A stretch of 32,000 nucleotides of DNA from Dehalococcoidia bacterium (GTDB taxonomy: Bacteria; Chloroflexota; Dehalococcoidia; SM23-28-2), in assembly GCA_030615765.1 (NCBI GenBank), contig JAUWYP010000011.1, positions 21,867 to 53,866 of the forward strand, in the 5' to 3' direction. This document shows positions 11,628 to 25,671 of this stretch, piece by piece (the stretch's first letter is position 1; each line of letters starts with the position of its first letter). The notes below the pieces were generated by a model that was not told the origin of the DNA, searched no databases, and saw only the letters and a program-made list of their open reading frames with translations. Made by a program: the position numbers and the translations under genes.

Positions 11628-11893
11628 TGGGCCGCCTCCTTCAGAATGGCGTTGTCCAACGACAGCTCAGCCACGAGCTTCTTCAGCCGGGCGTTCTCCC
11701 GCTCCAGCTCCTTCAGCCTCTTGGCCTGATCCCTCCCCAGCCCTCCATACTCCTTGCGCCAGCGGTAGTACGTCTGCTCGGTCACGCCGAGCTTCTTACT
11801 AACCTCGGGCACCGTCATCCCCCTGGCGAGCCCGACTTCCGCCTCCCTGAGCTTGTTGATGATCTCCTCCGGTGTGCGGCACTTCCTGCTCAT
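11615..11893 (-). CDS. IS3-family transposase OrfA (HTH + coiled coil)
   Basis: MSRKCRTPEEIINKLREAEVGLARGMTVPEVSKKLGVTEQTYYRWRKEYGGLGRDQAKRLKELERENARLKKLVAELSLDNAILKEAAQGNF. The ATG at 11893 lies inside the IS; the track's longer start at 11971 lies outside the IR. Confidence 0.85.
   Translation of the reverse strand: MSRKCRTPEEIINKLREAEVGLARGMTVPEVSKKLGVTEQTYYRWRKEYGGLGRDQAKRLKELERENARLKKLVAELSLDNAILKEAAQGNF
11621..11627 (-). promoter_or_regulatory. Putative -1 programmed ribosomal frameshift site G-GGA-AAC
   Basis: The minus strand reads cag gga aac ttc tga. The heptamer fits X XXY YYZ, sits 2 codons before the orfA stop, and orfB is in the -1 frame. Confidence 0.5.
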
Positions 11894-12070
11894 GCAGCTT
11901 GCCCCTTTCCCTGGTCCAGAACCCCTGTACACTAACATTGGAACTGGACTCGTTTTCGGGGGCAAGGTCACCCGCAGGTGCCCCGGATTGTCACTCAGCT
12001 ATCCCTGGATCTCACTGTAATCTGCTACTCGGTCACGCAGCCAGTCGATGCGTCCAGATGCTGCTCGCAC

Positions 12071-12099
12071 TTGACAGATTCTCTTTCGGGAACTAATCT
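12071..12099 (+). promoter_or_regulatory. sigma70-type promoter of the NLR operon
   Basis: TTGACA (12071-12076) - 17 nt - TAATCT (12094-12099). Followed by AGGAG (12112-12116) and ATG 12127. Confidence 0.55.
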
Positions 12100-12126
12100 C
12101 CACCTGCGGAAAGGAGCGCGTGACCG

Positions 12127-12300
12127 ATGGCGCGGGTGGGGGCTTCGGATGGCGGTAGCAGTCAGATCATGATCGAATTCGAGTGCGACTGTGGGAACGT
12201 AATTCGCGTCCCAAAGAGTCCTGCCCACAAAGAGGGCACGTGTCCAGGATGCCAGCGACTCACACGTGTTCCCTCGGGAGGAGAATACGTTGGAATTTGA
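12127..12300 (+). CDS. Small Zn-ribbon protein (57 aa; below the ORF-track cut-off)
   Basis: Own translation: MARVGASDGGSSQIMIEFECDCGNVIRVPKSPAHKEGTCPGCQRLTRVPSGGEYVGI*. Contains CxC...CxxC. SD AGGAG lies 10 nt upstream of ATG 12127; an alternative ATG is at 12169. The stop at 12298-12300 overlaps the start region of the next ORF. Confidence 0.5.
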   Translation: MARVGASDGGSSQIMIEFECDCGNVIRVPKSPAHKEGTCPGCQRLTRVPSGGEYVGI

Positions 12301-15300
12301 GGAGGCAACGTCCCTTGTTCTCCGCCTTCTCGAGGAGAAGGGGAAGGCGAAGAACAGTGAGATGATGAAGCTGTGCGGCAACGACCGAGAGTTGTTCGAT
12401 CGTGTCCGCGAAGACCTCATCTTCAACGACTTGGCTGAAGACAAAAAGGGCGTCGGGCTGGTCTACGTACGCCCGCCCTCCGAGGTGCCACCTCTTGAGG
12501 TTCCCGTGGCGGAGGACGTTCAGGAAGTAGTAGCTTCCGAGCCCAACATTCCTGACGCCGATGTCGTCATCAGTTATTCGCACAAGGACTTCGATCTCGC
12601 CCGCGAAATCGTGCGACAGCTCGAGAACGCAAGCGTCAAGCTGTGGTGGGATAAGACCGGCATCCGAGCTGGTCGGTGGCGCGAGAAGATCGTCCGCGCA
12701 ATACGATCCTCCAAGACTCTCACTGTTTTGTGCTCTATCAACTCGATGCAGTCTGAGGATGTTCGCACGGAACTTGAGTTAGCCGACTATTATAGGCGCA
12801 ATCGGCTGCCGCTTGGTCTCGATGAAACGGACTATCCCGAAAGTATCATCTACTGCCTGGTTAGCTGGCACAAGCACCGGGTTCCGATCATGGACCGCTC
12901 GGTCACCGAGTGGCTGCCGGAGGTTCTGGATGCCTTGGTAGCCCTCGGCGTTGCCTGCGACCGGCCGGCACTTCCACCCCCAGCCGTCGCTCCGGCTCCA
13001 ACCGCTGCTAAGGCTGTCAAGCCAAGCTGGCCTGAGCGGAGGGCTGTTCCCGTCACGGCTCCCCCGGTAGGCCGGCCGGGAGCGGGACGGAGGTTCCGCA
13101 TCTTCGTCAGCTCTACTTACGGCGACATGAAGGAGGAGCGGAACGCGCTCCAGCGCTTCGTCTTCCCACGGCTAAGGGAGCTTTGTTCGGTGCATGGGTG
13201 CCGGTTTGAGGCGGTCGACCTGCGTTGGGGCGTCAGCCAGGAAGCTGGCCTCGACCAGCAAGCCATGCCGATCGCCCTCCAAGAGATCGACCCATGCCGG
13301 CGCACGACGTCTCGGCCCAACTTCATCGTCCTCCTCGGCGACCGTTACGGCTGGCGCCCGCTGCCCTCCGAGATCCCGGCCCATGAGTTCGAGGAGATCT
13401 GCCGGCGTATCTCCGCAGACAAACAGCAGCGGCTGAAGGACTGGTATTTCAGGGACGATAACGCCGTCCCGCCCGACTACTGCTTGAAGCCGCGTGAAAT
13501 GGGAGGCGAGTACGAAGACTTCGCCATATGGGAAGCGGTGGAGCGCGACCTTCGTTCCATCCTGCTCGCGGCGGTGAAGGGCATGCCGCTTGAGGCTCAT
13601 GACCGTATGAAGTACGAGGCGTCGGCCACCGAACAGGAGATCGCCCAGGGGGCGTTACGGGTCCCGGACGCCCGGGAGCACGTCTACTGCTTCTTCCGGA
13701 CGATCAAGGATTTGCCACGAGATCTGAGCGGGAGGGACTTTGTCGATCTTGACAGCGAGGGCAATCCGGACATCGATGCGCGCAGACGACTGGAAGAGCT
13801 GAAGCACAAGCTACGTGGCCTCCTCCCCGATAACATCTACGATTACGAGGCAAGGTGGAACGACGGTGGCATCACCACCGATCACATCGACAAGCTGTGC
13901 GAGGACGTTTTCGACGCCCTCTCCCGGATCATCGAGCAGGAGATCGAGCGGCTTGAACAGGTTGACCCACTGGATAAAGAGATAGCAGACCACGACGACT
14001 TCGGCCAGGATAGAGCGAAGTTCTTCACAGGTCGGGCCGACATGCTTAGGAAGATCGGCGACTACGTCAAGAGTGGGGACAGTCAGCCGTTAGCGGTTTG
14101 GGGAGAGTCAGGTTCGGGCAAATCGGCGCTGATGGCCCGCGCGGCCCAACAGGTTCGGGAAGACCTACCGAATGCCGAGGTCGTCCTTCGTTTCCTCGAT
14201 GCGACGCCGGAATCCTCGGACGGGCGCGCTTTGCTCGACAGCCTGTGCCGTCAGATCTCCCGGGCCTACGGGGCGGACGAAGCCACAGTGCCCACGGATT
14301 ACAGGGAAGTGGTCGACGATTTCCCGAAGCGGCTAGCCCTGGCCACTGAGGAGAAGCCGCTCATCCTGTTCCTAGACGCACTGGACCAGCTGTCCGACGC
14401 CGAGGGGGCCCGTAGCCTCATCTGGCTGCCCGCTGACCTGCCCGAACACGTGCGCCTGATCGTCTCCACCTTGCCGGGCGAATGCCTGTCGGCGCTGGAG
14501 AGCAAGCTCTCGGACACGAGCCTCGTGGAGCTAAAGCCGATGCCGCCCGATGAAGGTCGCAAGCTCCTGGACCTCTGGCTGGAGGACGCGGGTAGGACCC
14601 TTCCGCAGCATCAGCGAGACGAGGTGCTCAGCAAGTTCGGGGCCGAAGGTCGGCCGCTCTACCTCAAGCTGGCCTTTGAGGAGGCCCGCCGCTGGAAGTC
14701 CTACACGGACCCCAGCGACACAGTACTAGCTGAGGGCATCCGGGGCATCATCCGTGAGAACCTGTTCGCTCGTCTCTCGTCGCCGGCCAACCACGGCAAG
14801 ATGATAGTCTCGCGCAGCCTAGGGTATCTGGTCGCGGCGAAGAACGGTCTATCCGAGGACGAGCTGCTGGACGTGCTGTCCAGCGATGCAGACGTCCTCT
14901 CCGACTTCAAACGTCGTTCGCCAATATCGCCGGAGGTGGAGAGGCTACCGGTGGTGCTGTGGTCTCGCCTGTACTTCGACCTGGAACCCTACCTGACAGA
15001 ACGCAGCGCCGATGGCGCCTCCCTGATGACATTCTACCACCGTCAACTCGGCGAGGTTGTGGCGGAGGACTACCTGGCCGGCGATGCGAAACCAGGGCGC
15101 CACCGCGCTCTGGCGGACTACTTCGATAAACAAGGGCTTGAAATCGAAGGCGCTCCCAATCTACGCAAGATGTCCGAGCTGCCATTCCAGCAGACGCACG
15201 GCGAGATGTGGGAAGAGCTCTTCGCCACCCTCACCAATTTCCCCTTCCTGGAAAGGAAGGCCGCCGATCTCGGAGTCCTGGAGCGCACAGACGCCGAGGG

Positions 15301-17548
15301 GAACGTGACGCGGACCCACACCGGCGTCTTCCTGCTCCAGGACGACTTCCGGCTGGCCCTGGAAAAGATGCCCGGCGACGGCGCCACGCCCGGGGGCAGG
15401 AGACCGCTGCTTGAGGTCTTCTCGCGAGCCCTGGGTCGCGAGAGTCACGTCCTTCATCGGCGGCCCGATCTCCTCTGGCAGCAGCTGTACAACCGTCTCC
15501 AGTGGTCGGAGGGTGGCCCCGAGCGGCTCGCGGCAGAGCTTCAACGCCGAACAAGGCCGGGCTCAGCGCCCTGGATGCGGGTCCGAACGCCTTCCCGGGA
15601 ATCGGAGGCGCTCATCCGAACGCTCGAGGGTCACTCTGGTCCGGTCAGAAGTTGCGTGCTGAGTCGTGACGGCTCCGTGGTCGTCTCAGCGGGCGACGAC
15701 TACACCGTCCGACTCTGGGATGCGACGACCGGCGCTGAGCGGGCCTGCCTCGTTGGCCATGACGATTGGGTCACCGGCTGCGCCATCAGCCGGGACGGCA
15801 GCTTCGTCGTATCGGCCAGCTCCGACCTCACCTTGAGGGTTTGGGATGCGGTCAGGGGGGTGGAGCGAGCGGTTCTCGGAGGCCACACGGCCGCGGTCAC
15901 AGCCTGCGCCATCAGCCCCGACGGCTCCTTCATCGTCTCGGGAAGTCGCGACGGGACGCTCAAGCTCTGGGACGTGGCCACCGGGAAGGAGCTTCGCACC
16001 CTTGAAGGCCATACGTCCGGTGTCAGGAGCTGCGCCATCAGCCCGGACGGCGCCTTCATCGTCTCGGCAAGCGAGGACGGGAGCCTCAGAATCTGGGACG
16101 CGGCTGGCGGGCGGGTACTCTGCACTCTCAAGGGTCACACCGACGCGGTCTTGGGCTGCGCGGTCAGCCCTGATGAGGCCTTCATCGTCTCGGCAAGTCG
16201 CGACGGGACGCTGAAGCTCTGGGACCCGTCGAGCGGGAGGGAGCTTCGCAGTCTCGAAGGCCACGGCGAGCCGGTTCGGGGCTGTGCCATCAGCGGTGAG
16301 GGCTCGTTCATCGTGTCGGCAGGCGACGACAGGGTGCTGAGGATCTGGGATTCGGCTACTGGCATCCAGCGAGCGACCCTCGTTGGCCACGCCGATCTTG
16401 TGACCGCATGCGCGGTGAGTTCTGATGGCTCGTTCGTCGTTTCCGCGAGTGACGACGGCACGCTCAAGGTCTGGGATATGACTCTCCTCCAAGAGCCCGC
16501 TGCCATCGAAGGCCACGACGGCGCAATCTCCGGCTGCGCCATCAGCGCTGACGGCGCGCTGGTAGCTTCGGCAAGTCAGGACGGGACCATCAAGGTCTGG
16601 GATTTGGCCACCGGGGTGGAGCGCGCAACTCTCGGCGGCCACATGGGCGGTGTTTTCAGTTGTACTTTCAGCCCGGACGGCTCCGCTCTTGTCTCGGCAA
16701 GTGACGATGGGACTCTCAAGGTCTATGATCCAGAGACCGGGGAGGAGCGGGCCACCCTGCGTGGCCACAGGGGCGGCGTCTTCGGCTGTGCAGTCAGCCC
16801 AGACGGTGCGTTCGTAGTCTCAGCCGGCGAAGACCGGACGCTCAAGCTCTGGGACATCGGCACCGGAATGGAGCGGGCAACGCTGGAGGGACATGTCTCG
16901 TCCGTCAATCGTTGTGCGGTCAGCCCGGACGGGTCGTTCGTCGTCTCGGCCAGCGATGACGAGACAGTCCGGATCTGGGATGCGGTAACCGGTCAGCAGC
17001 GCGCTCGGCTCGTCGGTCACGGCTCGTCGGTCTGGGGCTGCGCCGTGAGCCCTGATGCCGCGTTCGTCGTTTCAGCGAGTTGGGATGGGACCGTCAGGAT
17101 CTGGGACGTGAAGAGCGGCGAACAGCGGACTGTCCTGAACGGCCACACCGACCAGGTGTGGGACTGCTCGGTTACTCCCGACGGTGGGTTCATAGTCTCG
17201 GCGAGCCGGGACAAGACTCTGAGGGTCTGGGATACGTTCGGCCGAGAGTGCGCCTCGTTGCCGCTGCCCGGCGGAGCGCTGTCCGTGGCCCTACATCCCC
17301 ACCTGCCGTTCGCAGCCTGTGGCGACGAGAGCGGGAGCTTCTACCTCGTCGATCTTGTCGGCATCGAGTACGGGCCTATCATCGTCACAACGAGTCATGG
17401 AGGGACGGGACCGACCCTGCGCTGCCCCGCGTGTCACGGGATCTTCCCTCTCGAGCAGAGCTGGCTCGGAGCCGAGATGACGTGTCCAAACCGCGAGTGC
17501 GGCACTCCGCTCCGGGTCAACCCGTTCATCGCCGGCCTACAGCGATGA
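12266..17548 (+). CDS. NLR-like STAND protein: N-terminal wHTH-like region - TIR - DUF4062 - NACHT NTPase - helical module - 14 WD40 blades - C-terminal Zn-ribbon
   Basis: TIR: DADVVISYSHKDFDLAREIVRQLENASVKLWWDK...LCSINSMQSEDVRTELELA (aa ~97-190; conserved Glu169 at nt 12770-12772). DUF4062: RRFRIFVSSTYGDMKEERNALQRFVFPRL...NFIVLLGDRYGWRPLP (aa ~276-366). Walker A GESGSGKS at 14102-14125; Walker B LILFLDALDQ at 14360-14389. WD40: 13 canonical units GH..V..CA.SPDGSF.VSAS.D.TL.[VIL]WD plus 1 degenerate (15623-17365). C-terminus: LRCPACHGIFPLEQSWLGAEMTCPNRECGTPLRV. The start is GTG 12266 or TTG 12290, the latter with GGGAGGAG 6 nt upstream. Confidence 0.9.
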   Translation: MFPREENTLEFEEATSLVLRLLEEKGKAKNSEMMKLCGNDRELFDRVREDLIFNDLAEDKKGVGLVYVRPPSEVPPLEVPVAEDVQEVVASEPNIPDADVVISYSHKDFDLAREIVRQLENASVKLWWDKTGIRAGRWREKIVRAIRSSKTLTVLCSINSMQSEDVRTELELADYYRRNRLPLGLDETDYPESIIYCLVSWHKHRVPIMDRSVTEWLPEVLDALVALGVACDRPALPPPAVAPAPTAAKAVKPSWPERRAVPVTAPPVGRPGAGRRFRIFVSSTYGDMKEERNALQRFVFPRLRELCSVHGCRFEAVDLRWGVSQEAGLDQQAMPIALQEIDPCRRTTSRPNFIVLLGDRYGWRPLPSEIPAHEFEEICRRISADKQQRLKDWYFRDDNAVPPDYCLKPREMGGEYEDFAIWEAVERDLRSILLAAVKGMPLEAHDRMKYEASATEQEIAQGALRVPDAREHVYCFFRTIKDLPRDLSGRDFVDLDSEGNPDIDARRRLEELKHKLRGLLPDNIYDYEARWNDGGITTDHIDKLCEDVFDALSRIIEQEIERLEQVDPLDKEIADHDDFGQDRAKFFTGRADMLRKIGDYVKSGDSQPLAVWGESGSGKSALMARAAQQVREDLPNAEVVLRFLDATPESSDGRALLDSLCRQISRAYGADEATVPTDYREVVDDFPKRLALATEEKPLILFLDALDQLSDAEGARSLIWLPADLPEHVRLIVSTLPGECLSALESKLSDTSLVELKPMPPDEGRKLLDLWLEDAGRTLPQHQRDEVLSKFGAEGRPLYLKLAFEEARRWKSYTDPSDTVLAEGIRGIIRENLFARLSSPANHGKMIVSRSLGYLVAAKNGLSEDELLDVLSSDADVLSDFKRRSPISPEVERLPVVLWSRLYFDLEPYLTERSADGASLMTFYHRQLGEVVAEDYLAGDAKPGRHRALADYFDKQGLEIEGAPNLRKMSELPFQQTHGEMWEELFATLTNFPFLERKAADLGVLERTDAEGNVTRTHTGVFLLQDDFRLALEKMPGDGATPGGRRPLLEVFSRALGRESHVLHRRPDLLWQQLYNRLQWSEGGPERLAAELQRRTRPGSAPWMRVRTPSRESEALIRTLEGHSGPVRSCVLSRDGSVVVSAGDDYTVRLWDATTGAERACLVGHDDWVTGCAISRDGSFVVSASSDLTLRVWDAVRGVERAVLGGHTAAVTACAISPDGSFIVSGSRDGTLKLWDVATGKELRTLEGHTSGVRSCAISPDGAFIVSASEDGSLRIWDAAGGRVLCTLKGHTDAVLGCAVSPDEAFIVSASRDGTLKLWDPSSGRELRSLEGHGEPVRGCAISGEGSFIVSAGDDRVLRIWDSATGIQRATLVGHADLVTACAVSSDGSFVVSASDDGTLKVWDMTLLQEPAAIEGHDGAISGCAISADGALVASASQDGTIKVWDLATGVERATLGGHMGGVFSCTFSPDGSALVSASDDGTLKVYDPETGEERATLRGHRGGVFGCAVSPDGAFVVSAGEDRTLKLWDIGTGMERATLEGHVSSVNRCAVSPDGSFVVSASDDETVRIWDAVTGQQRARLVGHGSSVWGCAVSPDAAFVVSASWDGTVRIWDVKSGEQRTVLNGHTDQVWDCSVTPDGGFIVSASRDKTLRVWDTFGRECASLPLPGGALSVALHPHLPFAACGDESGSFYLVDLVGIEYGPIIVTTSHGGTGPTLRCPACHGIFPLEQSWLGAEMTCPNRECGTPLRVNPFIAGLQR
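15623..17365 (+). repeat. Tandem 126-bp WD40 coding repeats (moderately diverged)
   Basis: 14 blades at 42-aa periodicity. The repeats produce the long antisense artefact ORF 15686..16768(-). Confidence 0.85.
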
Positions 17549-19404
17549 CCCCCAAAGGCGGAATAGACACGCACGAGAGCGAACGTTCGAGCGGGACGCC
17601 TCCCCGCGCTCGGAGCGAGACGTTCTGGCGGGACCGTGTACGGCCTCTCTGGGAGGCCGTCGAGTGGCCGCTAGTCGGCCTCCTTGCGCTGCTCGCGCTG
17701 GGATTGGGGATCGACGGCTTCCGGCAGCACCTCGAGGCGAGCGGGCAATCGCACTCAGCGTCGGATGTGCTCTACCGGACGTTGCAGCTCTTCGTTCTCG
17801 AGTCCGGATGGGACTCGAGAGGCGTCAACTGGGAACTCGGCGTGGCGCGACTCTTGGCGCCTGCGGTGGCCGCGTACGCAGCCGTGCGAGCGCTGGGGGC
17901 GATCTTTCGCGAGCAGCTCCACTTGCTTCGGGTTCGCTCTTGGGGGAACCACGTCGTGATCTGCGGGTTGGGGCGAAAGGGCGTGCTCTTAGCGGAGGCG
18001 TTCCGCGCCCGCAAGGAACGGGTGGCGGTGATCGAGAAGGATGAGGAGAACAGTGCGGTCCGCAGGTGCCGCGACCAGGGCATCCCAGTCGTGATCGGCG
18101 ACGCGACGGACCTGGCCGTCCTCCGCAAAGCAGGAGTCCAGAAGGCCAAGTGTCTGATCTCCGTCTGCGGCGAGGACGGCGTTAATGCCGACGTGGCCGC
18201 TCATGCCCAGGAGCTGGTGGCCGCGAAGCCTCGTCGAAGCGGCTTCCTCCGCTCGTTCGTCCACGTCGTCGACCTCGAGCTGTGCACTCTGCTCAGAGAC
18301 AGGGTGGCTGTGGCCGGGAAGCGACACTCCTTCCGGCTCGAGCTCTTCAACGTCTTTGAGAGCGGCGCCCGCGGCTGGTTGAACGAGCACCTGCCCTTCG
18401 AGTCGGCTGGCCGAGAGGACGGCCGGCCGCATCTCCTCGTCGTCGGCGCCGGGCAGATGGGAAAGAGCCTCATCGTCGGGGCGGCGAGAAGGTGGCTCAC
18501 CCTCCATGCTGGCGCCGGCCCGCGCCCGCGGATCACCATCGTCGATCGGGAGGCGGAGCGGAGGAAGGACTCGCTACTCCTGCGCCACCCGCAGCTCGAG
18601 CAGGTCTGCGAGCTGGTCCCCGTCCGGACGGACGTCACCTGGCCGGAGTTCGAGGAGGGGAGGTTCCTCTTCGACGCCGAGGGACGCTGCGACGTGACCA
18701 CGATCTACGTCTGTCTCGACGACGACGTGCGCGGCCTAGCCGCGGGGCTGGACTTGTTGCAGCGGGTGCGTGAACACGGGGTCACGATCGTCGTTCGCAC
18801 CGCCGAGAAGGCGGGACTCGCGGCCGCGCTTGGGAGCGAGCGTCCAGGCGGCGACGGCTTGGAGCTCCTGCACGCCTTTCCGCTGCTCGACCTAACCTGC
18901 ACCCCGGAGCAGCTTCTCGGTGAGACCCCCAGCGAGCGCCTCGCCCGCACCATCCACGAGGACTACGTGCAGCGCGAAAGGGAAAAAGGCGAGACGGTCG
19001 AGACCAACCCCTCGATAGTCGAGTGGGACGAACTCCCCGAGAGCCTCAGGGAGTCGAACCGGCGACAGGCCGACCACCTCGGTGCTAAACTCAAGGCCGT
19101 CGGTTGCGGTAGCGCACCGCTGACCGGTTCGGAAGCGGAACCGATCGCCTTCTCCCCGGAGGAGGTGGAGTTGCTTGCGGAGCTCGAGCACAAGCGCTGG
19201 ATGGCCGAGCGCCTGTTCGAGGGCTGGACGCACGCGCCAGGCCCGAAGAATCTCGAGCGGAAAACAAGCCCCGCTCTCGTCGCCTGGGAGGAGCTGCCCG
19301 AAACCGAGAAGGAGAAGGATCGAGCGACGGCGGGCCAGCTGCCGGCGTGCCTCGCCCGCGCCAGCTTCCAGGTTTACCGCCTTGAGGAAGGAGCCGTGCG
19401 ATGA
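17545..19404 (+). CDS. Membrane protein: 2 TM helices (ion-channel-like) - TrkA_N/RCK Rossmann x2 - RyR domain x2
   Basis: The start ATG 17545 overlaps the upstream stop (ATGA 17545-17548); the track's longer 17080 start lies inside the NLR gene. TM helices: WPLVGLLALLALGLGIDGF and WELGVARLLAPAVAAYAAVRALGAIF. TrkA_N: HVVICGLGRKGVLLAEAF...VAVIEKD and HLLVVGAGQMGKSLIVGAA. RyR: ERLARTIHEDYVQREREKGETVETNPSIVEWDELPESLRESNRRQADHL and VELLAELEHKRWMAERLFEGWTHAPGPKNLERKTSPALVAWEELPETEKEKDRA. Confidence 0.85.
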   Translation: MTPKGGIDTHESERSSGTPPRARSETFWRDRVRPLWEAVEWPLVGLLALLALGLGIDGFRQHLEASGQSHSASDVLYRTLQLFVLESGWDSRGVNWELGVARLLAPAVAAYAAVRALGAIFREQLHLLRVRSWGNHVVICGLGRKGVLLAEAFRARKERVAVIEKDEENSAVRRCRDQGIPVVIGDATDLAVLRKAGVQKAKCLISVCGEDGVNADVAAHAQELVAAKPRRSGFLRSFVHVVDLELCTLLRDRVAVAGKRHSFRLELFNVFESGARGWLNEHLPFESAGREDGRPHLLVVGAGQMGKSLIVGAARRWLTLHAGAGPRPRITIVDREAERRKDSLLLRHPQLEQVCELVPVRTDVTWPEFEEGRFLFDAEGRCDVTTIYVCLDDDVRGLAAGLDLLQRVREHGVTIVVRTAEKAGLAAALGSERPGGDGLELLHAFPLLDLTCTPEQLLGETPSERLARTIHEDYVQREREKGETVETNPSIVEWDELPESLRESNRRQADHLGAKLKAVGCGSAPLTGSEAEPIAFSPEEVELLAELEHKRWMAERLFEGWTHAPGPKNLERKTSPALVAWEELPETEKEKDRATAGQLPACLARASFQVYRLEEGAVR

Positions 19405-22400
19405 CCGACGAAACTAGAAAGACGCGCGATCGGAGAGCGAGGGTGAGGACGCCGCGCTCGCAGCGCCGCGTCGTCGTAACCGGAGACGTGACGATGGACT
19501 GGAACCTCGCCCGAACGCGTCGAGCCGAAGGGGCGGGCGCGGCGTGGAACGCGGAGGACACGACCGAGGGCTACCTGCAGCTGGGCGGGGCGGCGCTGCT
19601 GGCGGACCTCATCCAGACGGTCGTCGATCGGTTTCCGCCGGGCGCCGAGAAGTTCGAAGTCCGCCGGGCCGGCCTGCCCGGTGGGTTCTCGCTGGAGGCT
19701 CCGGAGTTCCACCATTCCTTCGCGCTCTGGTCGGCCTACGAGTCAGCCGACACTCCCCGGGTCTGGCGAGTCAAGGAGTTCCTGGGGCTGGACCGCCCGA
19801 GCGCAGAAGCGCAGCCCGCACCCAAAGGGGAGCAGGTGGTCGATGACCCGGTCGAGGCGGACTTGGTGATCCTGGACGACGCGGCGCTTGGCTTCCGAGA
19901 CGATCGCGGGCTGTGGCCAAAGGTGATCAGGGAACCCGCTGGACTGCAACCGTGGGTCTTGCTGAAGATGGCGCGGCCCATCGCCCAGGGAGACCTGTGG
20001 GAGCACCTGCGGCAGCACTTCGCGGAGCGACTGATCGTCATCATGACGATCAACGACCTGCGCCTCTCCGAGGTACAGATCAGCCGCGAGCTCTCGTGGG
20101 AGCGAACGGGGGAGGATCTCGCCCGCGAGCTGGTGAGCAATCCGCGGGTGAACGCCCTCTCTCAATGCGCCCACGTGGTGGTGTCGCTGAACACCGACGG
20201 GGCGTTCTTGCTCTCCCGCCGGGATGAGCCAGATAGGCGGTCCCCGGGGGAGACGCGGCCCGAGTGCCACCTCTTCTTCGACCCCAAGACAATCGAGGGC
20301 GTATGGGCGCAGCAGTACCCCGGCGGGATGGTTGGCTACACCACCTGCCTGACTGCCGGTATCGCCCGCGAGCTCATGCTCATGCCTGCCGACCCCGATG
20401 TCCGCCGGGGCATCCAGCGGGGGCTCGCGGCGATGCGGACGCTCCACCTGGTCGGATATGGCTCACGGGAGCCCGACGCCCGGGCCGACCTAAAGTTCCC
20501 CTACGAGGACGTGGCCGATGAGCTGGCGCGAGAAAGGGAGCAATTCGCCGTCGCTGAGGTGCCTGCGCCACACGGCGGCTCGTGGAGGATTCTGGAGGCT
20601 CGTTACCCGGAGGGCCTCGAGCGGGTCGCCCGGCAGATCGCGCGCGAGGGGGCGGAGGTCGCGCTCGAGGGCGTGCCGCTCGGCCGCTTCGGCGATCTGT
20701 TGACGGTCGATCGCGCAGAGATCGAGGACTTCCGGAGCATCCGGTCCCTGATCCACGAGTACAGCCGCGGGCGGCCGACTCGTCCGCTCTCGATCGCGGT
20801 CTTCGGGCCGCCGGGCTCGGGGAAGTCGTTCGGGATCGTCCAGGTGGTCGAGTCTCTGCCCGGAGAATTCGAGCGGCTCGACTTCAACCTCTCTCAGCTC
20901 AACGAGCCGGCCGAGCTGCACGGCGCCTTCCACCAAGTGCGCGACGTTGCCCTGGCTGGCTGCATCCCGCTCGTCTTCTGGGACGAGTTCGACACGACCC
21001 TGGGCGGCACGCAGCTCGGCTGGCTGCGCTACTTCCTAGTGCCAATGCAGGACGGCACCTTCCAGGAAGGGGAGCTAATGCATCCCATCGGCCCTGCCGT
21101 CTTCGTCTTCGCCGGAGGCACGAGCCACCGGATGGCTGCGTTCGAGACGATGGCGATGAAGGACACGGGGGCGAAGGCGACCGACTTCCTGAGCCGGCTC
21201 AAGGGCTACGTCGACATCCTAGGGCCGAACCCCCGCGACGGGGACGCAGCCACTGATCCCTACTACCTGATCCGCCGGGCGATCTTGCTGCGCTCTGTGC
21301 TTCTGCGCGACCAGCCAGATTTGTTCGAGCTGCGGGATGGCAACAAGTTGCTGCGGATCGATTCCGGTGTGCTGCGCGCGTTCCTCGAGACGCGCGAGTA
21401 CCGACACGGAGCGCGTTCGATTAAGGCGATCGTGGCGATGAGCCTCCTCCACGGCAAGACGCACTTCGAGCGCTCCGCCTTGCCCGCGGCGGGGCAGCTC
21501 GACGTTCACGTCCAGGCAGACGACTTCCTCGCGCTGGCACAGCGACACGAGCCGGAGGAGGAGGCGCTCGAGGCGCTCGCAGAGGCCGCGCACGTCGTCT
21601 ATTGCGCGGGGAGGCTCGAGGAGGGTCACAGGTGGCGCGAGCGGGACGTCGCGTATCTCGAGCGCCACAGCCTTCTCAAGCCGTTTGCCGCTTCGGCGTA
21701 CGACGGCACGGAGATGCTACCCGCCCTCGTCTCCTGGGAGAACCTGAGCGGCGAGGACAGGGAGCAGAACCGCGGCCAGGTGCGCCACATCCCGAGCCGT
21801 CTCGAGGCCCTCGGTTACGTCATGCGGAAGGCGCGCGGCGGCGTCGACCCCACTGCTTTCGTCCTCTCTAGGCGCATGCTTGAGCTCCTCGCCGAACAGG
21901 AGCACGAGCGCTGGCTCTGGGCAAGGCTGCGAGCGGGCTGGCGCTACGGCGCGATCAGGAACAACCGCCGGAAGCTCCATCCGGCGCTGCTGCCCTGGCG
22001 TCCGCTCTCGCTGGAGGAGCGCGAGCAGAGCTATGGGGTCTGCGAAGACCGCCTGGGGCCGGGCGAGCTTGTTGAAGGCGACAAGGAGAAGGACCGCGAG
22101 GCCGTGCGCGAGATGACACAGATCGTCGCCGCGGCAGGGTGCGAGATCGTGAAGGTGCGTGAGCCGGCCGTGATCGTCGGGGTAACGGGCCACCGCATCC
22201 TGGCTGAGGTCGAGAAGATCAAGAAGGGAATAGGGGAGGCGCTCGATCGGGTCGAGCGGTCGTTCCCTGGGAAGCCCCTCACGGTGATGTCCGCCCTGGC
22301 CGAGGGTGCCGACTGCCTCGTGGTGAAGCGGGTACTCGCGCGCTCGACCGGAGGCCTCGTCGCCGTTCTGCCGCTGGCCGCAGCCGACTACGAGACCGAC

Positions 22401-22730
22401 TTCGAGTCAGATGAGTCCAAACAGGAGTTCCGAAACTTGCTGGCTCAGGCAGACGAGACGATCGAGCTGCCGCCCGCTGCCACTCGGGAGGCGGCCTACG
22501 AGGCGGTGGGCGAGTACATCGTCGATCACTGCGACGTGCTCGTCACCGTCTGGGACGGCCAGGGCGCGCAGGGCCAGGGCGGGACAGGCGGGGTGGTGGC
22601 GCGCGCCCGCGAGCGTGGCCTCCCGATCGCCTGGGTGCACGCCGGCAACCGCAAGCCCGGAACGAACGAGCCGACCTCCCTGGGCACTGAGCAGGGAATG
22701 GTGACCTTTGAGCGTCTCGAGCCCGCCTGA
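19401..22730 (+). CDS. Multidomain protein: degenerate PfkB/ribokinase-like domain - AAA+ ATPase - RyR x2 - C-terminal SLOG (LOG/DprA/YpsA-like) domain
   Basis: ATG 19401 overlaps the upstream stop (ATGA 19401-19404). PfkB-like order of motifs: RVVVTGDVTMDWNL / LGGAALLADL / LIVIMTINDLRLSEV / AHVVVSLNTDGAFLLS / PGGMVGYTTCLTAGIAREL; the GAGD catalytic motif is not conserved. AAA+: Walker A GPPGSGKS (20805-20828), Walker B PLVFWDEFD, and YRHGARSIKAIV (sensor-2-like). RyR: MLELLAEQEHERWLWARLRAGWRYGAIRNNRRKLHPALLPWRPLSLEE...DKEKDREAV, plus an upstream copy (aa ~722-808). SLOG: VIVGVTGHR...SALAEGADCLVV...LVTVWDGQGAQGQGGTGGVV (22167-22655). Confidence 0.85.
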   Translation: MTDETRKTRDRRARVRTPRSQRRVVVTGDVTMDWNLARTRRAEGAGAAWNAEDTTEGYLQLGGAALLADLIQTVVDRFPPGAEKFEVRRAGLPGGFSLEAPEFHHSFALWSAYESADTPRVWRVKEFLGLDRPSAEAQPAPKGEQVVDDPVEADLVILDDAALGFRDDRGLWPKVIREPAGLQPWVLLKMARPIAQGDLWEHLRQHFAERLIVIMTINDLRLSEVQISRELSWERTGEDLARELVSNPRVNALSQCAHVVVSLNTDGAFLLSRRDEPDRRSPGETRPECHLFFDPKTIEGVWAQQYPGGMVGYTTCLTAGIARELMLMPADPDVRRGIQRGLAAMRTLHLVGYGSREPDARADLKFPYEDVADELAREREQFAVAEVPAPHGGSWRILEARYPEGLERVARQIAREGAEVALEGVPLGRFGDLLTVDRAEIEDFRSIRSLIHEYSRGRPTRPLSIAVFGPPGSGKSFGIVQVVESLPGEFERLDFNLSQLNEPAELHGAFHQVRDVALAGCIPLVFWDEFDTTLGGTQLGWLRYFLVPMQDGTFQEGELMHPIGPAVFVFAGGTSHRMAAFETMAMKDTGAKATDFLSRLKGYVDILGPNPRDGDAATDPYYLIRRAILLRSVLLRDQPDLFELRDGNKLLRIDSGVLRAFLETREYRHGARSIKAIVAMSLLHGKTHFERSALPAAGQLDVHVQADDFLALAQRHEPEEEALEALAEAAHVVYCAGRLEEGHRWRERDVAYLERHSLLKPFAASAYDGTEMLPALVSWENLSGEDREQNRGQVRHIPSRLEALGYVMRKARGGVDPTAFVLSRRMLELLAEQEHERWLWARLRAGWRYGAIRNNRRKLHPALLPWRPLSLEEREQSYGVCEDRLGPGELVEGDKEKDREAVREMTQIVAAAGCEIVKVREPAVIVGVTGHRILAEVEKIKKGIGEALDRVERSFPGKPLTVMSALAEGADCLVVKRVLARSTGGLVAVLPLAAADYETDFESDESKQEFRNLLAQADETIELPPAATREAAYEAVGEYIVDHCDVLVTVWDGQGAQGQGGTGGVVARARERGLPIAWVHAGNRKPGTNEPTSLGTEQGMVTFERLEPA

Positions 22731-23073: not shown

Positions 23074-25671
23074 ATGACGCACAGCGATGACGGCAACCCG
23101 GCTCAACCGGCACCGTCCTCCCTAGCCGAGCACCGCGAGCAGCTCGCCCTCCTTTCGCGCACGCTGGAGCGCGAGGCGCACATCTTGGCGCGGGAGCCGG
23201 AGGTGCTGGCCTCGCACCTGCACAACATGGTCTACCTGGACGAGGGCGATGATGGCCCCGCGGGCCCGCTGCTGGCTCGGGCACGCGACGCCCTGTCCGG
23301 ACGCCCCTGGCTGCGCCTCATCAACCGGCCACAGGTCGGAATAAGCCGCCGGGCACTGATCCGTGTCTTGGGCGACAGAATCGGTGCCACGTGTCTGGCT
23401 TGGTCATCCGACGGGCGAGTGCTGGCCGTCGGAACCATAGAGGGAATAGCACTGTGGATGGCAGATGGGATACCGGGTCCGGGCCTAGATCTTCGAGTCA
23501 GCGTAGAGACGCTGATCTGGTCACCAGACGGTCGACAGATCGCGTGGACGGACGAAGTTGGGAAGGCCCATGTGTGGACGCCCGGAACAAGCGAGCATCC
23601 AAGAAGCGTACAGGGCCACGGCCGAGACCAGGTCACATCGGTAGGCTGGTTGGATAACGAGACGCTCTTTCTCGCCACCGAGTTCGACGGCATTTTCGTC
23701 TGGCGTCTAGGAGCTCCAGGTCTGCGCCCCAGAGTGCTTGTGAGACAGAAAGAAGATGAGAGCGTGGAGACAGCTGCAGTGAGCCCGGATGGGAAAATGC
23801 TTGCCTGGACCGAGTACTCGAGTGTCTACATCAAGTCTCTTATCCCGCCCGGCCGTCGCACCTGGCTCGGTGCGTGCCACGATGTCGTTAAGTACTTGTC
23901 GTGGTCTGTGGATTCAATGTACCTTGCCTGCGCGGGGGACGGCTATGGGGTCACGATCTGGAGCGTTGAGACGAGGGCACCATTGACTATCGACGACGCG
24001 GCCCCTCCCCTGGCGTGGTCGCCGCGCGAATACACGTTGGCGTCCGGAGGGGATGGAACAGGAATTTACCTGTGGGATGGCCGCACCGGGAAGCCTACGT
24101 CGGTCCTCTACGGCCATCTCGCCTGGCTTGAGAGTCTAGCTTGGGCTCCAGACGGAAGGACTCTAGCATCAGGCAGCCACGATGCGGTGCGTTTGTGGGA
24201 CGCGGAGACGGCTACAAGGTGGCCGGGAACCAGGCAGAGGAAGCTTACCGAAATCCAGCGGCGTCGCTTGCCGGAGGTGAAGGATGTCGAGTGGTCCTCC
24301 GATGGGCAAGCATTTGCCTCAACCCATTACGAAACAAGCCGAAGGAAATCAGCTGTCTGCGTCTGGAAGGGGAAAACCGGTGACGAAGTCGCGATTCGTG
24401 AGGGTCTCGGGTTTGGCCAGCCCCGAATTGCCTGGTGTCCCGCTATTGATGTCCTATCGATGGCAATTGATTTCAACCTCATCTCGTGGGCTATTCCGGT
24501 CGATAGGCCGCTCAAAGGGCACGAAGGCGAAATCGATGCCCTGGCGTGGTCACGGCGCGGCGACTTGCTGGCCTCCGGTGATACAAAGGGAACGACACGC
24601 ATTTCCTGTGCCGCTAGCGTGTTTCATCTAGCTAAGCGTATGGGGGTAGATCAGTGGGCATCGCGATTGGGCGACGAGGATGATTGGACATGGGAGACCG
24701 GCGAAGGGTCCATCTGCAACTTGGAGTGGTTAGGAGAGGACGAGGTGTTGGTGGGGTTCGTACTCGGCCCGGGAATAGACATGGAGGCAGCAGAAGGTGG
24801 CGGTGCCTCGTATGTGAATCCACAGAAAGCGGCCATTTGGCATCTTGACTCAGGACGTCAACACCTGATCCCAGTCGGTTACGGGAGCGGCCGTCGCGAC
24901 GCCTTGAGGTGCTCGCCCGTCGGGTATCGCTTTGCAGTGTCGCATCTGAAACACCCCAAGAAGGAGCCGACAAGCCTGCAAGATGCCATGGCGCCTCTGC
25001 AGCATCTTACATCGATATGGGACGCTCGAGGTCTGCGCTGCGAGGTGGAGTTGGAGGGCGACGTAGCGACGTGCGGGTGGTCTCCAGACGGCTCTATACT
25101 GGTACTAGAGCGCGAAGATGAGTTGGTTCTTTGGGACAGCACTAGGCGGAAACCACGTGAGGTCTTGAAAGGCCATGGGCAGATTCAGGATGCAAGCTGG
25201 TCACCGAACAGCAGCTCATTTATATGGACCTCCGTTGATGCGAGCGTATGGATGTGGAACACGACGAACGGTGTAACGCGTCTGCTCCCGCCAGCTAGCG
25301 GGGGAGCGTCACGTCTTCTGTGGGCTCCTGACGGTGAGAAGTTGGTTTTGGCTGGCGTCTATGAGTACGACGCTGACTCCGAAGAGGACTTCCGAGAAGA
25401 GCAGTCAAGTCCTCGGTTGCCTCAAGTGGTGGACTTGTGGGATATGATCTCTGGCAGTTCAGTCGCGCGTGCGTACTGCCTCTCCCCTGTTCTTGCCCTC
25501 CAGTTCAGCTCGGACGGCCGCATCTTGCGGGCAGCGGACGATGGCAGCGCCACCGGCAACCGGCCCATCCCCTACCTCTTCGAGCTGTGCAACATCGAGA
25601 TAGGTTCGCCGGCGGTGCGCCCTGTCTCGCCACAGGAAACGCCGGGCGTGGAGCGAAATGGCGAAGCTTGA
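23074..25671 (+). CDS. Divergent WD40/beta-propeller repeat protein with an NLR-type pre-WD40 helical N-terminus and no NTPase domain
   Basis: The N-terminus LSRTLEREAHILAREPEVLASHLHNMVYL...RPWLRLINRP parallels LGRESHVLHRRPDLLWQQLYNRLQW...APWMRVRTP of the NLR. Degenerate WD units follow: WSPDGRQIAWTDEVGKAHVW, VSPDGKMLAW, LYGHLAWLESLAWAPDGRTLASGSHDAVRLWD, LKGHEGEIDALAWSRRGDLLASGD, LKGHGQIQDASWSP. Confidence 0.8.
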   Translation: MTHSDDGNPAQPAPSSLAEHREQLALLSRTLEREAHILAREPEVLASHLHNMVYLDEGDDGPAGPLLARARDALSGRPWLRLINRPQVGISRRALIRVLGDRIGATCLAWSSDGRVLAVGTIEGIALWMADGIPGPGLDLRVSVETLIWSPDGRQIAWTDEVGKAHVWTPGTSEHPRSVQGHGRDQVTSVGWLDNETLFLATEFDGIFVWRLGAPGLRPRVLVRQKEDESVETAAVSPDGKMLAWTEYSSVYIKSLIPPGRRTWLGACHDVVKYLSWSVDSMYLACAGDGYGVTIWSVETRAPLTIDDAAPPLAWSPREYTLASGGDGTGIYLWDGRTGKPTSVLYGHLAWLESLAWAPDGRTLASGSHDAVRLWDAETATRWPGTRQRKLTEIQRRRLPEVKDVEWSSDGQAFASTHYETSRRKSAVCVWKGKTGDEVAIREGLGFGQPRIAWCPAIDVLSMAIDFNLISWAIPVDRPLKGHEGEIDALAWSRRGDLLASGDTKGTTRISCAASVFHLAKRMGVDQWASRLGDEDDWTWETGEGSICNLEWLGEDEVLVGFVLGPGIDMEAAEGGGASYVNPQKAAIWHLDSGRQHLIPVGYGSGRRDALRCSPVGYRFAVSHLKHPKKEPTSLQDAMAPLQHLTSIWDARGLRCEVELEGDVATCGWSPDGSILVLEREDELVLWDSTRRKPREVLKGHGQIQDASWSPNSSSFIWTSVDASVWMWNTTNGVTRLLPPASGGASRLLWAPDGEKLVLAGVYEYDADSEEDFREEQSSPRLPQVVDLWDMISGSSVARAYCLSPVLALQFSSDGRILRAADDGSATGNRPIPYLFELCNIEIGSPAVRPVSPQETPGVERNGEA

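Follow-up and report, generated by a model that had tools for sequence, protein, structure and literature searches.

In this study, we examined a predicted operon of a Dehalococcoidia bacterium (SM23-28-2; GCA_030615765.1). It lies in a window, by which we mean the whole stretch of DNA analysed, of 32,000 nt (JAUWYP010000011.1, 21,867-53,866, forward strand). Three large ORFs, referred to below as genes 2, 3 and 4, lie on one strand (+) at 12266 (GTG) or 12290 (TTG) to 17548, 17545 to 19404 and 19401 to 22730. An ATGA joins the stop of gene 2 to the start of gene 3 (17545-17548), and another the stop of gene 3 to the start of gene 4 (19401-19404). The three frames and both overlaps are exactly as a preliminary description had them; its residue numbers for TIR E169, NACHT K619 and AAA+ K475 hold, and profile and structure searches confirmed all of its domain calls in genes 2, 3 and 4. 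The features are as follows, with gene 2 residues counted from GTG 12266.

12071-12099, plus strand: candidate promoter, TTGACA-N17-TAATCT; sequence as described, weak
12127-12300, plus strand: small CxC...CxxC Zn-ribbon-like ORF, 57 aa if started at ATG 12127, 43 aa if at ATG 12169; membership doubtful
12290-17548, plus strand: gene 2, NLR-like sensor and putative signal generator, from domain searches; longest ORF from GTG 12266
12563-12823, plus strand: TIR_2, aa 100-186; Pfam E 9.6e-15; catalytic-position Glu E169
13097-13651, plus strand: TIR-like DUF4062 domain with its Pfam core at aa 278-367; Pfam score 40.8 bits (threshold 24.7)
14090-15079, plus strand: NTPase of the NACHT kind, aa 609-774, with Walker A K619; NWD1-type winged helix, aa 841-938
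15608-17515, plus strand: WD40 beta-propellers (aa ~1115-1695) and C-terminal tail; Pfam WD40 E 8e-150, 13 stretches
17545-19404, plus strand: gene 3, 619 aa, predicted cation channel (P-loop, RCK-gated) with RyR sensor domain
17650-17907, plus strand: pore module of gene 3, from DSSP of the AF2 model and a hydropathy scan
17953-18921, plus strand: two RCK/TrkA_N Rossmann domains of gene 3, aa 137-281 and 296-459; Pfam TrkA_N E 2.6e-20
18928-19386, plus strand: tandem RyR Repeat12 of gene 3, aa 462-614; two Pfam RyR stretches; PDB profile E 4e-30
19401-22730, plus strand: gene 4, 1109 aa, ribokinase-like, AAA+, RyR and SLOG
19458-20765, plus strand: PfkB/ribokinase-fold domain of gene 4, aa ~20-455, from Foldseek on the AF2 model
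20766-21545, plus strand: AAA+ module of gene 4; Walker A GPPGSGKS (K475), Walker B D528-E529
21558-22136, plus strand: tandem RyR Repeat12 of gene 4, aa 720-912; Pfam E 4e-22; PDB profile E 1.4e-31
22158-22715, plus strand: SLOG domain of gene 4, aa ~920-1105; Foldseek match YpsA (2nx2), TMt 0.70, rmsd 3.3

Upstream of the large genes, two elements stood only in part. What had been called a consensus-like promoter has a perfect -35 hexamer (TTGACA, 12071-12076), but its -10 hexamer (TAATCT) matches at only 3 of 6 positions and the promoter scan made no call at 12071-12099. The candidate lies about 100 bp outside the inverted repeat (11959-11973) of an IS3 element, which is found directly upstream of the operon. 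The small Zn-ribbon-like frame, listed as an operon gene, does exist as an ORF and is preceded by AAAGGAG, but it matches nothing in Pfam, PADLOC or NCBIfam and has no counterpart upstream of homologous DUF4062-NACHT genes (0/32). This peptide probably lies outside the system.

Gene 2 encodes, in order, a wHTH-like N-terminus, TIR_2, DUF4062, NACHT, an NWD1-type winged helix, WD40 repeats and a C-terminal Zn ribbon. TTG 12290 appears the likelier start compared with GTG 12266, being preceded by GGAGGAG and matching the NCBI product of 1752 aa. A glutamate occupies the position of E169 in 84 of the 86 TIR segments taken from related loci. The DUF4062 domain, which has a conserved extension to about aa 462 that includes S453-A-T-x-Q-E458, belongs to a family described in a preprint as a TIR-like NADase acting in defence by NAD+ depletion, with linear ADPR as reported product and no cyclic signal (10.64898/2026.05.01.722283). 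Because of that report, we predict an NLR with two NAD-cleaving heads. NACHT was matched in Pfam at E 4e-12, together with nSTAND1 and HTH_NWD1, and the WD40 region has at least 13 repeats by Pfam, or about 14 blades. The CxxC...CxxxC tail gave only a weak Trm112p/Zn_ribbon match, and RyR is absent from this protein, as had been noted before.

The AF2 model of gene 3 finds its best Foldseek match in the full GsuK channel, aligned over the full length. Its pore module comprises TM1 (aa ~36-58), a pore-helix-like helix (aa 72-81), the stretch L85-E86-S87-G88 and TM2 (aa 96-121); Y77, Q81, L82 and L85 are invariant among homologues, and E86 and G88 are kept in 22 and 21 of 23. The RCK domains match TrkA and GsuK by PDB profile and GsuK, TrkA, CASTOR and MthK by Foldseek, and both GxGxxG Rossmann motifs, E164 and D334 are invariant. 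The predicted topology is thus that of a tetrameric RCK-gated P-loop ion channel, which narrows the "membrane permeabiliser" proposed earlier while keeping it a membrane protein; this reading rests on a monomer model and a non-canonical filter. Since the filter position reads LESG, not TVGYG, the channel is probably not K+-selective. In the RyR region, which by Foldseek matches human RyR3 Repeat12 and phage RyR-domain proteins, H549 is conserved in 22/23 and D592 in 19/23, and an aromatic residue occupies position 552 in 23/23, with the phosphate-contacting His replaced by Ser or Asn in most members.

Gene 4 begins with a ribokinase fold, recognised by Foldseek (LacC, HldA and ribokinase, probability 1.0, TMt ~0.53) and lacking a Pfam match; no clear GAGD motif, the catalytic signature of PfkB, is seen in it. 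Eight of its residues (G28, D29, G63, A64, D159, D160, D294 and E299) are invariant in 26/26 homologues, as are K475, S476, D528, E529, R599 and R626 of the AAA+ module, which matches AAA and bpMoxR only weakly in Pfam and dynein AAA modules by Foldseek. Aligned residue by residue to the RyR2 repeats, the second RyR repeat retains all the ligand residues (H835, W838, H860 and K897-D898), conserved in 24-26 of 26 homologues; the first repeat is degenerate in this protein and in that of gene 3. The SLOG motifs G-x-T-G-H-R (927-932), E-G-A-D (968-971) and G-G-T (1060-1062) are kept in all SLOG-bearing members. Across homologous loci, SLOG is a separate adjacent gene in 30 and fused in 7, and fused or adjacent SLOG is missing from 44 of the 80 gene 4-anchored loci in directon maps.

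Genes 3 and 4 recur beside TIR, DUF4062 and NACHT genes in many phyla, the pattern that the preliminary description had staked its claim on. A TIR or DUF4062 gene lies within 5 kb of 41/69 (59%) gene 4 homologues in genomes and of 32/51 (63%) gene 3 homologues in metagenomes, and TIR density within 5 kb is 4.6-5.6 times that at 5-10 kb (p 1e-5 and 4e-4). In each set, 30 of 80 loci have a TIR or DUF4062 gene in the same directon, with the order shuffled (G4>SLOG>G3>TIR, G4>TIR, G3>TIR, G4>G3>NACHT>DUF4062-NACHT) among hosts from Chloroflexota, Acidobacteriota, Planctomycetota, Actinomycetota, Gemmatimonadota, Proteobacteria and Archaea. When look-ups were anchored on homologues of the NLR, gene 3 and/or gene 4 adjoined them in three of four cases. 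Known predicted partners, namely Nudix genes and effectors of the SLOG-SLATT 2TM kind, turn up in gene 3/gene 4 loci as well. About 40% of gene 3 and gene 4 loci have neither TIR nor DUF4062 within 5 kb, including loci with short gene 4 forms in Chlorobiaceae and Clostridia. In the closest relatives (62-77% identity), genes 3 and 4 again overlap and are directly preceded by a double-TIR protein of 261 aa (ThsB_TIR-like plus TIR_2), in which no STAND or other sensor module was detected; there the genes lie beside dnaA, in another genomic context. That change of setting, together with the IS3 directly upstream here, is as expected of a mobile accessory module. Taken together, the comparisons support the operon genes forming a functional unit.

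Phage RyR domains have been reported, in two 2026 preprints, to bind 2'/3'-cADPR at nanomolar affinity or to cleave it, with H, W, H and K/D as ligand residues, and to dimerise via helices alpha1 and alpha4 (PMC13232231; 10.64898/2026.06.04.730250). Because these domains bind 2'/3'-cADPR, we consider RyR more likely a signal receptor than a protein-protein coupler. Its distribution reads as that of a sensor module: it is found on the channel, on the AAA+ protein, on RelA_SpoT-TPR-SLOG(LSDAT) proteins adjoining TIR genes and, at an archaeal locus, fused directly to TIR, and it is absent from gene 4 relatives of ~700 aa. ATP or ADP is bound in structures of human RyR3 Repeat12, and given the roughly 40% of loci with neither TIR nor DUF4062 nearby, RyR may read an adenine nucleotide other than a TIR product.

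With moderate confidence, we favour a three-gene conflict system of the TIR-signalling, Thoeris-like kind, most likely anti-phage, in which RyR reads an NAD-derived signal. By analogy with STAND biology, the WD40 propellers would bind an invader protein and NACHT would oligomerise the NLR, which would switch on the TIR (E169) and DUF4062 heads to yield ADP-ribose and/or a cyclic ADPR isomer. Phage RyR biochemistry and the logic of domain fusions suggest that the RyR Repeat12 of genes 3 and 4 would read this product, as SLOG of gene 4 also might; the earlier proposal of SLOG and TrkA_N as readers stays plausible, both Rossmann sites of gene 3 being invariant. From structure prediction, gene 3 would be a tetrameric 2TM P-loop channel of the GsuK/MthK type, gated by a double-RCK ring and opened by ligand so that cation flow depolarises the cell and aborts infection. 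In the weakest step, gene 4 might assemble as an AAA+ hexamer and respond to the signal independently, as a second effector or an amplifier, and its ribokinase-like domain could act on a ribose or nucleotide substrate.

A rather unlikely alternative, and the one that survives best, is that the NLR is a complete abortive-infection NADase, like TIR-STAND/Avs/bNACHT or Swarozyc, with genes 3 and 4 as accessories. These would sense falling NAD+ or rising ADPR via the RCK Rossmann sites, RyR and SLOG, and reinforce arrest, or else end or recycle the signal through RyDEP-like glycosidase activity and ribokinase-like salvage. The NLR may indeed be self-sufficient, given a full-length homologue of 54% identity that occurs without genes 3 and 4, and the ADPR-only product reported for DUF4062 proteins fits NAD+ depletion. 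GsuK has been crystallised with NAD and ADP bound, according to entry titles, which agrees with the invariant Rossmann motifs of gene 3, and the ribokinase fold of gene 4 suits ribose or nucleotide salvage. The second gene 4 repeat retains the catalytic His/Asp dyad of RyDEP, but this dyad is also present in sponge-type phage RyR proteins, which are not catalytic. Against this alternative, SLOG-SLATT membrane effectors keep company with genes 3 and 4, and the partner in the closest relatives is a small TIR-only protein in the style of ThsB, an arrangement typical of signal generators, unlike stand-alone NADase effectors.

The preliminary description had SLOG and/or TrkA_N reading the signal and RyR-RyR contacts coupling the AAA+ protein to the membrane protein as sole effector, which we now regard as improbable. 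The two proteins do resemble each other in their tandem RyR modules and in how the repeats have degenerated, their genes show translational overlap in this operon as in the closest relatives, and phage RyR proteins dimerise. However, genes 3 and 4 are mostly apart (gene 3 within 5 kb of 9/69 gene 4 loci, gene 4 within 5 kb of 20/51 gene 3 loci), many gene 4 loci are without SLOG, RyR is also carried by a TIR protein and by effector-like proteins unrelated to these two, and its conserved positions lie along the ligand pocket known from phage structures. That genes 3 and 4 are a housekeeping nucleotide-gated cation channel and a sugar-kinase-like ATPase beside the NLR by chance is very improbable: gene 3 relatives are annotated 'NAD-binding protein' or 'voltage-gated potassium channel Kch', many Chlorobiaceae and Clostridia gene 4 loci have no detected TIR, DUF4062 or NACHT, and no known defence genes were found flanking the operon within the window, but the association with TIR/DUF4062, the shared and shuffled directons, the Rosetta-stone fusions TIR-RyR and RelA_SpoT-SLOG-RyR and the mobile setting all speak against it.

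The signal-receptor reading resembles Thoeris in its proposed logic, with a TIR-made NAD-derived signal read by effectors. As predicted, the PADLOC matches were generic TIR/WD40 ones confined to gene 2, with genes 3 and 4 left unmatched, and we found no published description of this gene system in the literature. The operon probably represents an as yet undescribed branch of NAD-signal immunity in bacteria, and this bacterial RyR/NAD-signal branch is a possible ancestor of animal cADPR-RyR signalling.

We found the operon to consist of three large same-strand ORFs that share an ATGA overlap at both junctions, as the preliminary description of this DNA had stated. The window, with a GC content of approximately 0.58–0.68, holds the following features in and around it.

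12266 (GTG) or 12290 (TTG) to 17548, plus strand: gene 2, the NLR, by ORF reading
17545–19404, plus strand: gene 3, by ORF reading, with an ATGA overlap with gene 2
19401–22730, plus strand: gene 4, by ORF reading, with an ATGA overlap with gene 3
12127 (ATG behind AAAGGAG, 57 aa) or 12169 (ATG, 43 aa), ending at 12298–12300, plus strand: small Zn-ribbon ORF, read directly
10699–11973, minus strand: IS3-family element immediately upstream of the operon
11615–11971, minus strand: IS3 orfA (HTH_Tnp_1)
10731–11594, minus strand: IS3 orfB (rve/rve_3)
10699–10713 and 11959–11973: IS3 inverted repeats of 15 nt
23074–25671, plus strand: gene for an 865-aa WD40/PD40 protein, downstream of the operon
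25658–26458, plus strand: gene for a 266-aa protein without family match, overlapping the 865-aa gene
27009–29909, plus strand: gene for a 966-aa protein with 14 WD40 repeats and TPR

NCBI calls a gene 2 product of 1752 aa, which matches the TTG start at 12290, a codon preceded by GGAGGAG. The Zn-ribbon peptide had been counted as part of the operon; its ORF is indeed present, but it matches nothing in Pfam, PADLOC or NCBIfam and gave no homologue by phmmer, and a role for it as a conserved component is not supported, since an upstream CxxC...CxxC ORF accompanies none of 32 homologous DUF4062-NACHT genes. The promoter, described as consensus-like, has a perfect −35 box, but its −10 matches only three of six positions and the promoter scan does not report it. 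With these two exceptions the earlier observations were essentially right, and the interpretation built on them was partly so. An outward promoter carried by the IS3 element can be set aside, as the inverted repeats end about 100 bp short of TTGACA. Downstream of gene 4 there is no terminator-like site. The three genes that follow (23074–29909) have generic repeat matches only in PADLOC, and their products could possibly be extra sensors tied to the operon; within the window, PADLOC found a known defence system in none of the operon's flanking genes.

Gene 2 encodes a NACHT/STAND NTPase with an intact Walker A motif (K619), an N-terminal TIR/DUF4062 head and a C-terminal WD40 repeat sensor. 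Pfam places TIR_2 at aa 100–186 (E 9.6e-15; ThsB_TIR reaches only E 0.17), DUF4062 (PF13271) at aa 278–367 (40.8 bits against a gathering score of 24.7) and NACHT at aa 609–774, together with nSTAND1, HTH_NWD1 and at least 13 WD40 repeats. Within the TIR domain, E169 occupies the catalytic glutamate position, which is Glu in 84 of 86 aligned TIR segments from related loci. The catalytic Glu of the TIR-like NADase DUF4062 (Swarozyc/TEP1 family) is E97 in KpSwz and E1008 in TEP1; in gene 2, the candidates are E326, E340, E374, E426 and E458, each at least 90% conserved. E169 and K619, as well as K475 of gene 4, stand at the positions first given for them, and every domain initially proposed for the operon was confirmed by Pfam, PDB profiles, and AF2 models with Foldseek. 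For gene 2, PADLOC returned no more than generic TIR and WD40 matches, and genes 3 and 4 gave none, as had been expected.

Gene 3 encodes a putative ligand-gated channel of the RCK-gated, 2TM P-loop kind, as judged from its predicted structure. Pfam detects TrkA_N and two RyR stretches, and the PDB profile search matched RyR Repeat12 (E 4e-30) along with TrkA and GsuK. The AF2 model (pLDDT 82) contains a long transmembrane helix, a short helix (aa 72–81), a loop, a second long helix (aa 96–132), two Rossmann domains and a helical RyR module; its best PDB matches by Foldseek are the full-length GsuK channel, TrkA, the CASTOR gating ring, MthK and human RyR3 Repeat12, and in a viral structure library the top matches are phage RyR-domain proteins. 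GsuK is the best full-length structural match. Gene 3 shares with GsuK, MthK and CASTOR the succession of TM1, pore helix, filter, TM2 and tandem RCK as well as the Rossmann GxGxxG sites, but differs from them in its L-E-S-G filter, an extra C-terminal RyR domain and the setting in a TIR/NLR operon. Among 23 sequences, L85 of this filter is invariant, and E86, S87 and G88 are kept in 22, 17 and 21; the K+ selectivity signature T-V-G-Y-G is absent from this position. In our view the L-E-S-G filter resembles TLESW, the filter sequence of sodium channels in bacteria. The two GxGxxG motifs show no variation, nor do the acidic residues E164 and D334, and members of the family are annotated as 'NAD-binding protein' or 'Kch'.

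Gene 4 belongs to a wholly uncharacterised family that PADLOC does not see. Pfam identifies RyR and a weak AAA match only, and neither Pfam nor NCBIfam offers a name beyond RyR. Its AF2 model (pLDDT 77) matches PfkB/ribokinase enzymes, dynein AAA modules, RyR Repeat12 and YpsA. The N-terminal domain has a ribokinase fold, which Foldseek matches to LacC, HldA and ribokinase with probability 1.0 (TMt approximately 0.53); a Pfam PfkB match is absent even with E allowed up to 1, and no catalytic GAGD motif for the anion hole is evident, the region holding invariant D294 and E299. In the AAA+ module, none of the 26 sequences departs from K475 and S476 (Walker A), D528 and E529 (Walker B), R599 or R626. 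The C-terminal domain has a SLOG fold (Foldseek to YpsA 2nx2, TMt 0.70, rmsd 3.3) with conserved Gly-rich motifs G-x-T-G-H-R and G-G-T, and matches no Pfam SLOG family at the sequence level.

The gene-4 family is large, with more than 2,000 matches in a word-indexed search and 2,246 representatives at 50% identity (E up to 1e-30). Members of about 1,100 aa carry SLOG, those of about 900 aa lack it and those of about 700 aa have no RyR. Since many of the latter match only aa ~20–715, the ribokinase-like and AAA+ pair appears from these alignments to be the core unit, to which RyR and SLOG are optional C-terminal additions. In 30 cases SLOG has its own gene alongside, and in 7 it is fused. In several Chloroflexota (L003, L004, L005, L006, L024, L057 and other loci from our sample), a SLOG ORF lies in-frame after the core with one stop codon between (two in L006). 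Programmed stop-codon read-through from core to SLOG was considered and rejected: the 30 split cases use all three frames (11, 6 and 13) with an ordinary ATG just past the stop, which points to ordinary gene fission or fusion.

To place these genes in context, we sampled 80 loci from genomes, with gene 4 as the anchor, and 80 from metagenomes, with gene 3 as the anchor, labelling ORFs by phmmer and iterated HMMs. Counts within 5 kb are restricted to loci whose flank measures 4 kb or more (69 for gene 4, 51 for gene 3). Of these, 41/69 and 32/51, respectively, have TIR or DUF4062 within 5 kb, and TIR ORF density is 4.6- and 5.6-fold higher within 5 kb than at 5–10 kb (p 1.4e-5 and 4.3e-4). TIR or DUF4062 shares the directon of the anchor in 30 of the 80 loci of each set, in shuffled orders such as G4>SLOG>G3>TIR, G4>TIR, G3>TIR, G3>DUF4062-NACHT and G4>G3>NACHT>DUF4062-NACHT. 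The preliminary description had made its reading depend on homologues of genes 3 and 4 being co-localised with TIR/NACHT genes elsewhere, and this is clearly what we found. Gene 3 accompanies gene 4 in 9/69 loci and gene 4 accompanies gene 3 in 20/51. The gene-4-anchored loci span many bacterial phyla and include two archaeal MAGs. The closest relatives of genes 3 and 4 (62–77% identity) overlap each other directly behind a gene for a small TIR protein, in a locus that adjoins dnaA and is thus a different genomic setting from the window.

L084, 9182–9967 (also in L001 and L085): 261-aa small TIR protein, ThsB_TIR/DUF4062-like at aa 12–89, TIR_2 at aa 120–251

With its two TIR-type domains, this protein mirrors the window's NLR and its pair of predicted NAD-cleaving heads. 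Further neighbours in related loci encode SLOG-SLATT 2TM, TIR-TPR and TIR-NACHT-TPR proteins and Nudix hydrolases. When 568 unlabelled neighbours were clustered, only two-component regulators from related Clostridia recurred in more than seven loci, and the only thematically relevant recurrent ones were Nudix (five loci) and RelA/SpoT (four loci). The small Nudix hydrolase occurs with a gene-3 homologue and (DUF4062-)NACHT genes (L140, L094, L108, L114 and L136), directly upstream of gene 3 in L140 (9428–9913), and may be an ADPR-processing accessory. SLOG-SLATT (2TM) genes adjoin gene-3 or gene-4 homologues in L092 (8086–9705), L027 (4738–6549) and L169 (12552–13991); their SLOG shares homology with the domain at the C-terminus of gene 4, and the proteins resemble the '4TM SLOG' putative Thoeris effector class of Yirmiya et al. 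In L167 (7979–12675), the gene-3 homologue is apparently split into a TM and RCK part (475 aa) and, beyond a gene-4 homologue (930 aa), a 151-aa RyR-only ORF matching the gene-3 RyR domain, either an assembly artefact or a true rearrangement.

What genes 3 and 4 have in common is the tandem RyR domain, for which the PF02026 match and Repeat12 fold are established in both by Pfam, PDB profiles and Foldseek. Two phage proteins of this family were characterised in preprints from 2026. RyDEP cleaves 2'/3'-cADPR through contacts at H75, W78, H100 and D117, and its homologues sponge the same molecules with nanomolar affinity (PMC13232231). RyR Tad binds 1''-3' gcADPR (Kd 43 nM) as well as 1''-2' gcADPR and cADPR, using H129/W132, K147/H154 and K170/D171 (10.64898/2026.06.04.730250). 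Neither paper names a host protein that uses the domain (PMC13232231; 10.64898/2026.06.04.730250). In gene 4, repeat 2 retains the ligand set almost completely (H835 26/26, W838 25/26, H860 26/26, K897 24/26, D898 25/26), so that the His-x-x-Trp, His and Lys-Asp of the phage proteins are kept. Repeat 2 of gene 3 has a partial set, with H549 in 22/23, an aromatic residue at 552 in 23/23, D592 in 19/23 and Ser/Asn in place of the second His. Whereas RyDEP and RyR Tad are small viral anti-defence homodimers, the domain is found here as a tandem C-terminal repeat on large host proteins beside TIR genes, a putative host-side receptor rather than a sponge.

In related loci, RyR is also found on 850–885-aa RelA_SpoT-TPR-LSDAT_prok(SLOG)-RyR proteins beside TIR genes and gene 3, and, in an archaeon, directly fused to TIR.

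L096, 3098–5752: 885-aa protein with RelA_SpoT nucleotide pyrophosphokinase, TPR, LSDAT_prok (TRPM-type SLOG) and RyR
L108, 15997–18531: 845-aa protein in which Pfam finds RelA_SpoT and RyR only
L065 (Methanobacteriaceae MAG), 12688–14691: 668-aa protein with N-terminal TIR_2 and C-terminal RyR, directly after a gene-4 homologue

The L096 architecture thus places RyR and a TRPM-type SLOG within one prokaryotic protein. A second-messenger sensor is typically recognised by just this pattern, one small domain on several unrelated outputs beside signal enzymes, as with SLOG, SAVED, CARF and Macro. This distribution and the fact that genes 3 and 4 often occur apart argue for RyR as a putative signal receptor in both proteins, and against the earlier suggestion that RyR-RyR contacts couple gene 4 to gene 3.

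From these domain assignments, we infer each step of a mechanism from NLR sensing to activation of genes 3 and 4. The NLR would sense an invader and oligomerise, and its TIR and DUF4062 heads, the latter reported to be a TIR-like NADase (10.64898/2026.05.01.722283), would cleave NAD+. The cleavage product would bind the RyR domains of genes 3 and 4, plus the SLOG in gene 4; the GsuK-like channel of gene 3 would open on ligand, and the ribokinase-like AAA+ machine of gene 4 would be activated in parallel. In the most serious alternative, the NLR would suffice by itself as an NADase, and genes 3 and 4 would act as secondary responders or signal terminators. A full-length NLR homologue (54% identity) does stand alone in L166, and bNACHT/Avs proteins act as single genes; gene 2, unlike them, is translationally coupled to two large conserved partners. 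The NLR is operonic with genes 3 and 4 in the window and in L167 and L168, and gene 3 and/or gene 4 are adjacent in three of four NLR-anchored look-ups. For the preferred scheme, in which one signal would drive both effectors, ThsH and ThsI of Thoeris provide a precedent within one operon.

Thoeris is known in types I–XI, and a recent survey distinguishes 29 effector classes, among them 'ion channel', which is validated (type X; from Bacillus and Vibrio, with a DUF1863-like TIR), and 'ATPase', which is not (Yirmiya et al. 2025 preprint, 10.64898/2025.12.03.692087). As in Thoeris, a TIR with catalytic Glu adjoins effector genes bearing small-molecule sensor domains, here SLOG and RyR; the SLOG of ThsA is the 3'cADPR receptor, and gene 4 also carries a SLOG fold. 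Where the operon has its NLR, its closest relatives encode a small ThsB-like TIR protein; two effectors with one common sensor per operon parallel the ThsH and ThsI operons, and type X likewise has an ion-channel effector. In contrast to Thoeris, the TIR forms part of a DUF4062-NACHT-WD40 STAND protein, and such proteins were deliberately left out of the survey, which removed TIRs in Avs/STAND proteins (10.64898/2025.12.03.692087); the effectors carry RyR Repeat12 domains as well as an RCK-gated P-loop channel and a ribokinase-like/AAA+ core. The PADLOC Thoeris models match none of the four operon proteins. In a comparison of TIR sequences, those of the survey classes showed generic identity (30–46% over 70–100 aa) to TIRs in related loci, and the type X TIR sequence did not match them. 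RyR, PF02026, TrkA and PF02254 find no mention in the available part of the survey's supplementary text (10.64898/2025.12.03.692087), and a literature search for links of RyR/PF02026 to SLOG/NACHT, phage defence, Thoeris or TIR yielded the two phage RyR papers only. On PADLOC, literature and survey comparison, we file the locus as Thoeris-like by analogy and outside the named types. Gene 2 itself shares with bNACHT/Avs an N-terminal effector head, NACHT module, winged helix and repeat sensor, and with TEP1/NWD1 the order DUF4062-NACHT-HTH_NWD1-WD40, but differs from all of these in its two predicted NAD-cleaving heads, TIR_2 and DUF4062, and in a wHTH at the N-terminus; the PADLOC bNACHT/Avs models do not match. 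STAND-fused TIRs, left out of Thoeris surveys as presumed NADase effectors, may be signal generators too.

The locus suggests that RyR-domain effectors associated with TIR/DUF4062 form a widespread family, so far unnamed, that includes a putative ligand-gated channel. We propose tentatively, as something possible rather than probable, that RyR Repeat12 effectors are NAD-messenger receptors in widespread, undescribed bacterial and archaeal TIR/DUF4062 systems, one effector being a ligand-gated cation channel. The operon family is a candidate host-side counterpart of the phage RyR proteins that bind or destroy cADPR-isomer immune signals, and if the proposal is true, the phage RyR sponges and glycosidases would be captured copies of a host receptor domain. 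There are also parallels in animals, where RyR and TRPM2 are ADPR/cADPR-linked Ca2+ channels. Like the ryanodine receptor, gene 3 is predicted to carry RyR Repeat12 on an ion channel; as in TRPM2 with its SLOG-like MHR1/2, a TRPM-type SLOG (LSDAT_prok) is found, in related loci, with RyR in one prokaryotic protein beside TIR genes; and, as with cADPR-making SARM1, a TIR enzyme stands upstream of the channel. The pore family, size and organism are different, and the likeness is one of domains. If true, a TIR to cADPR-isomer to RyR-domain-channel axis would be a prokaryotic forerunner of animal cADPR–ryanodine-receptor signalling and, with the LSDAT-SLOG partners, also of ADPR–TRPM2 signalling. 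The direct action of cADPR on ryanodine receptors has long been debated, and a small bacterial RyR-domain channel beside its presumed ligand-making enzyme would make that question directly testable. For TIR-based immunity, the family would, if this is true, add one new receptor domain and two new effector types.
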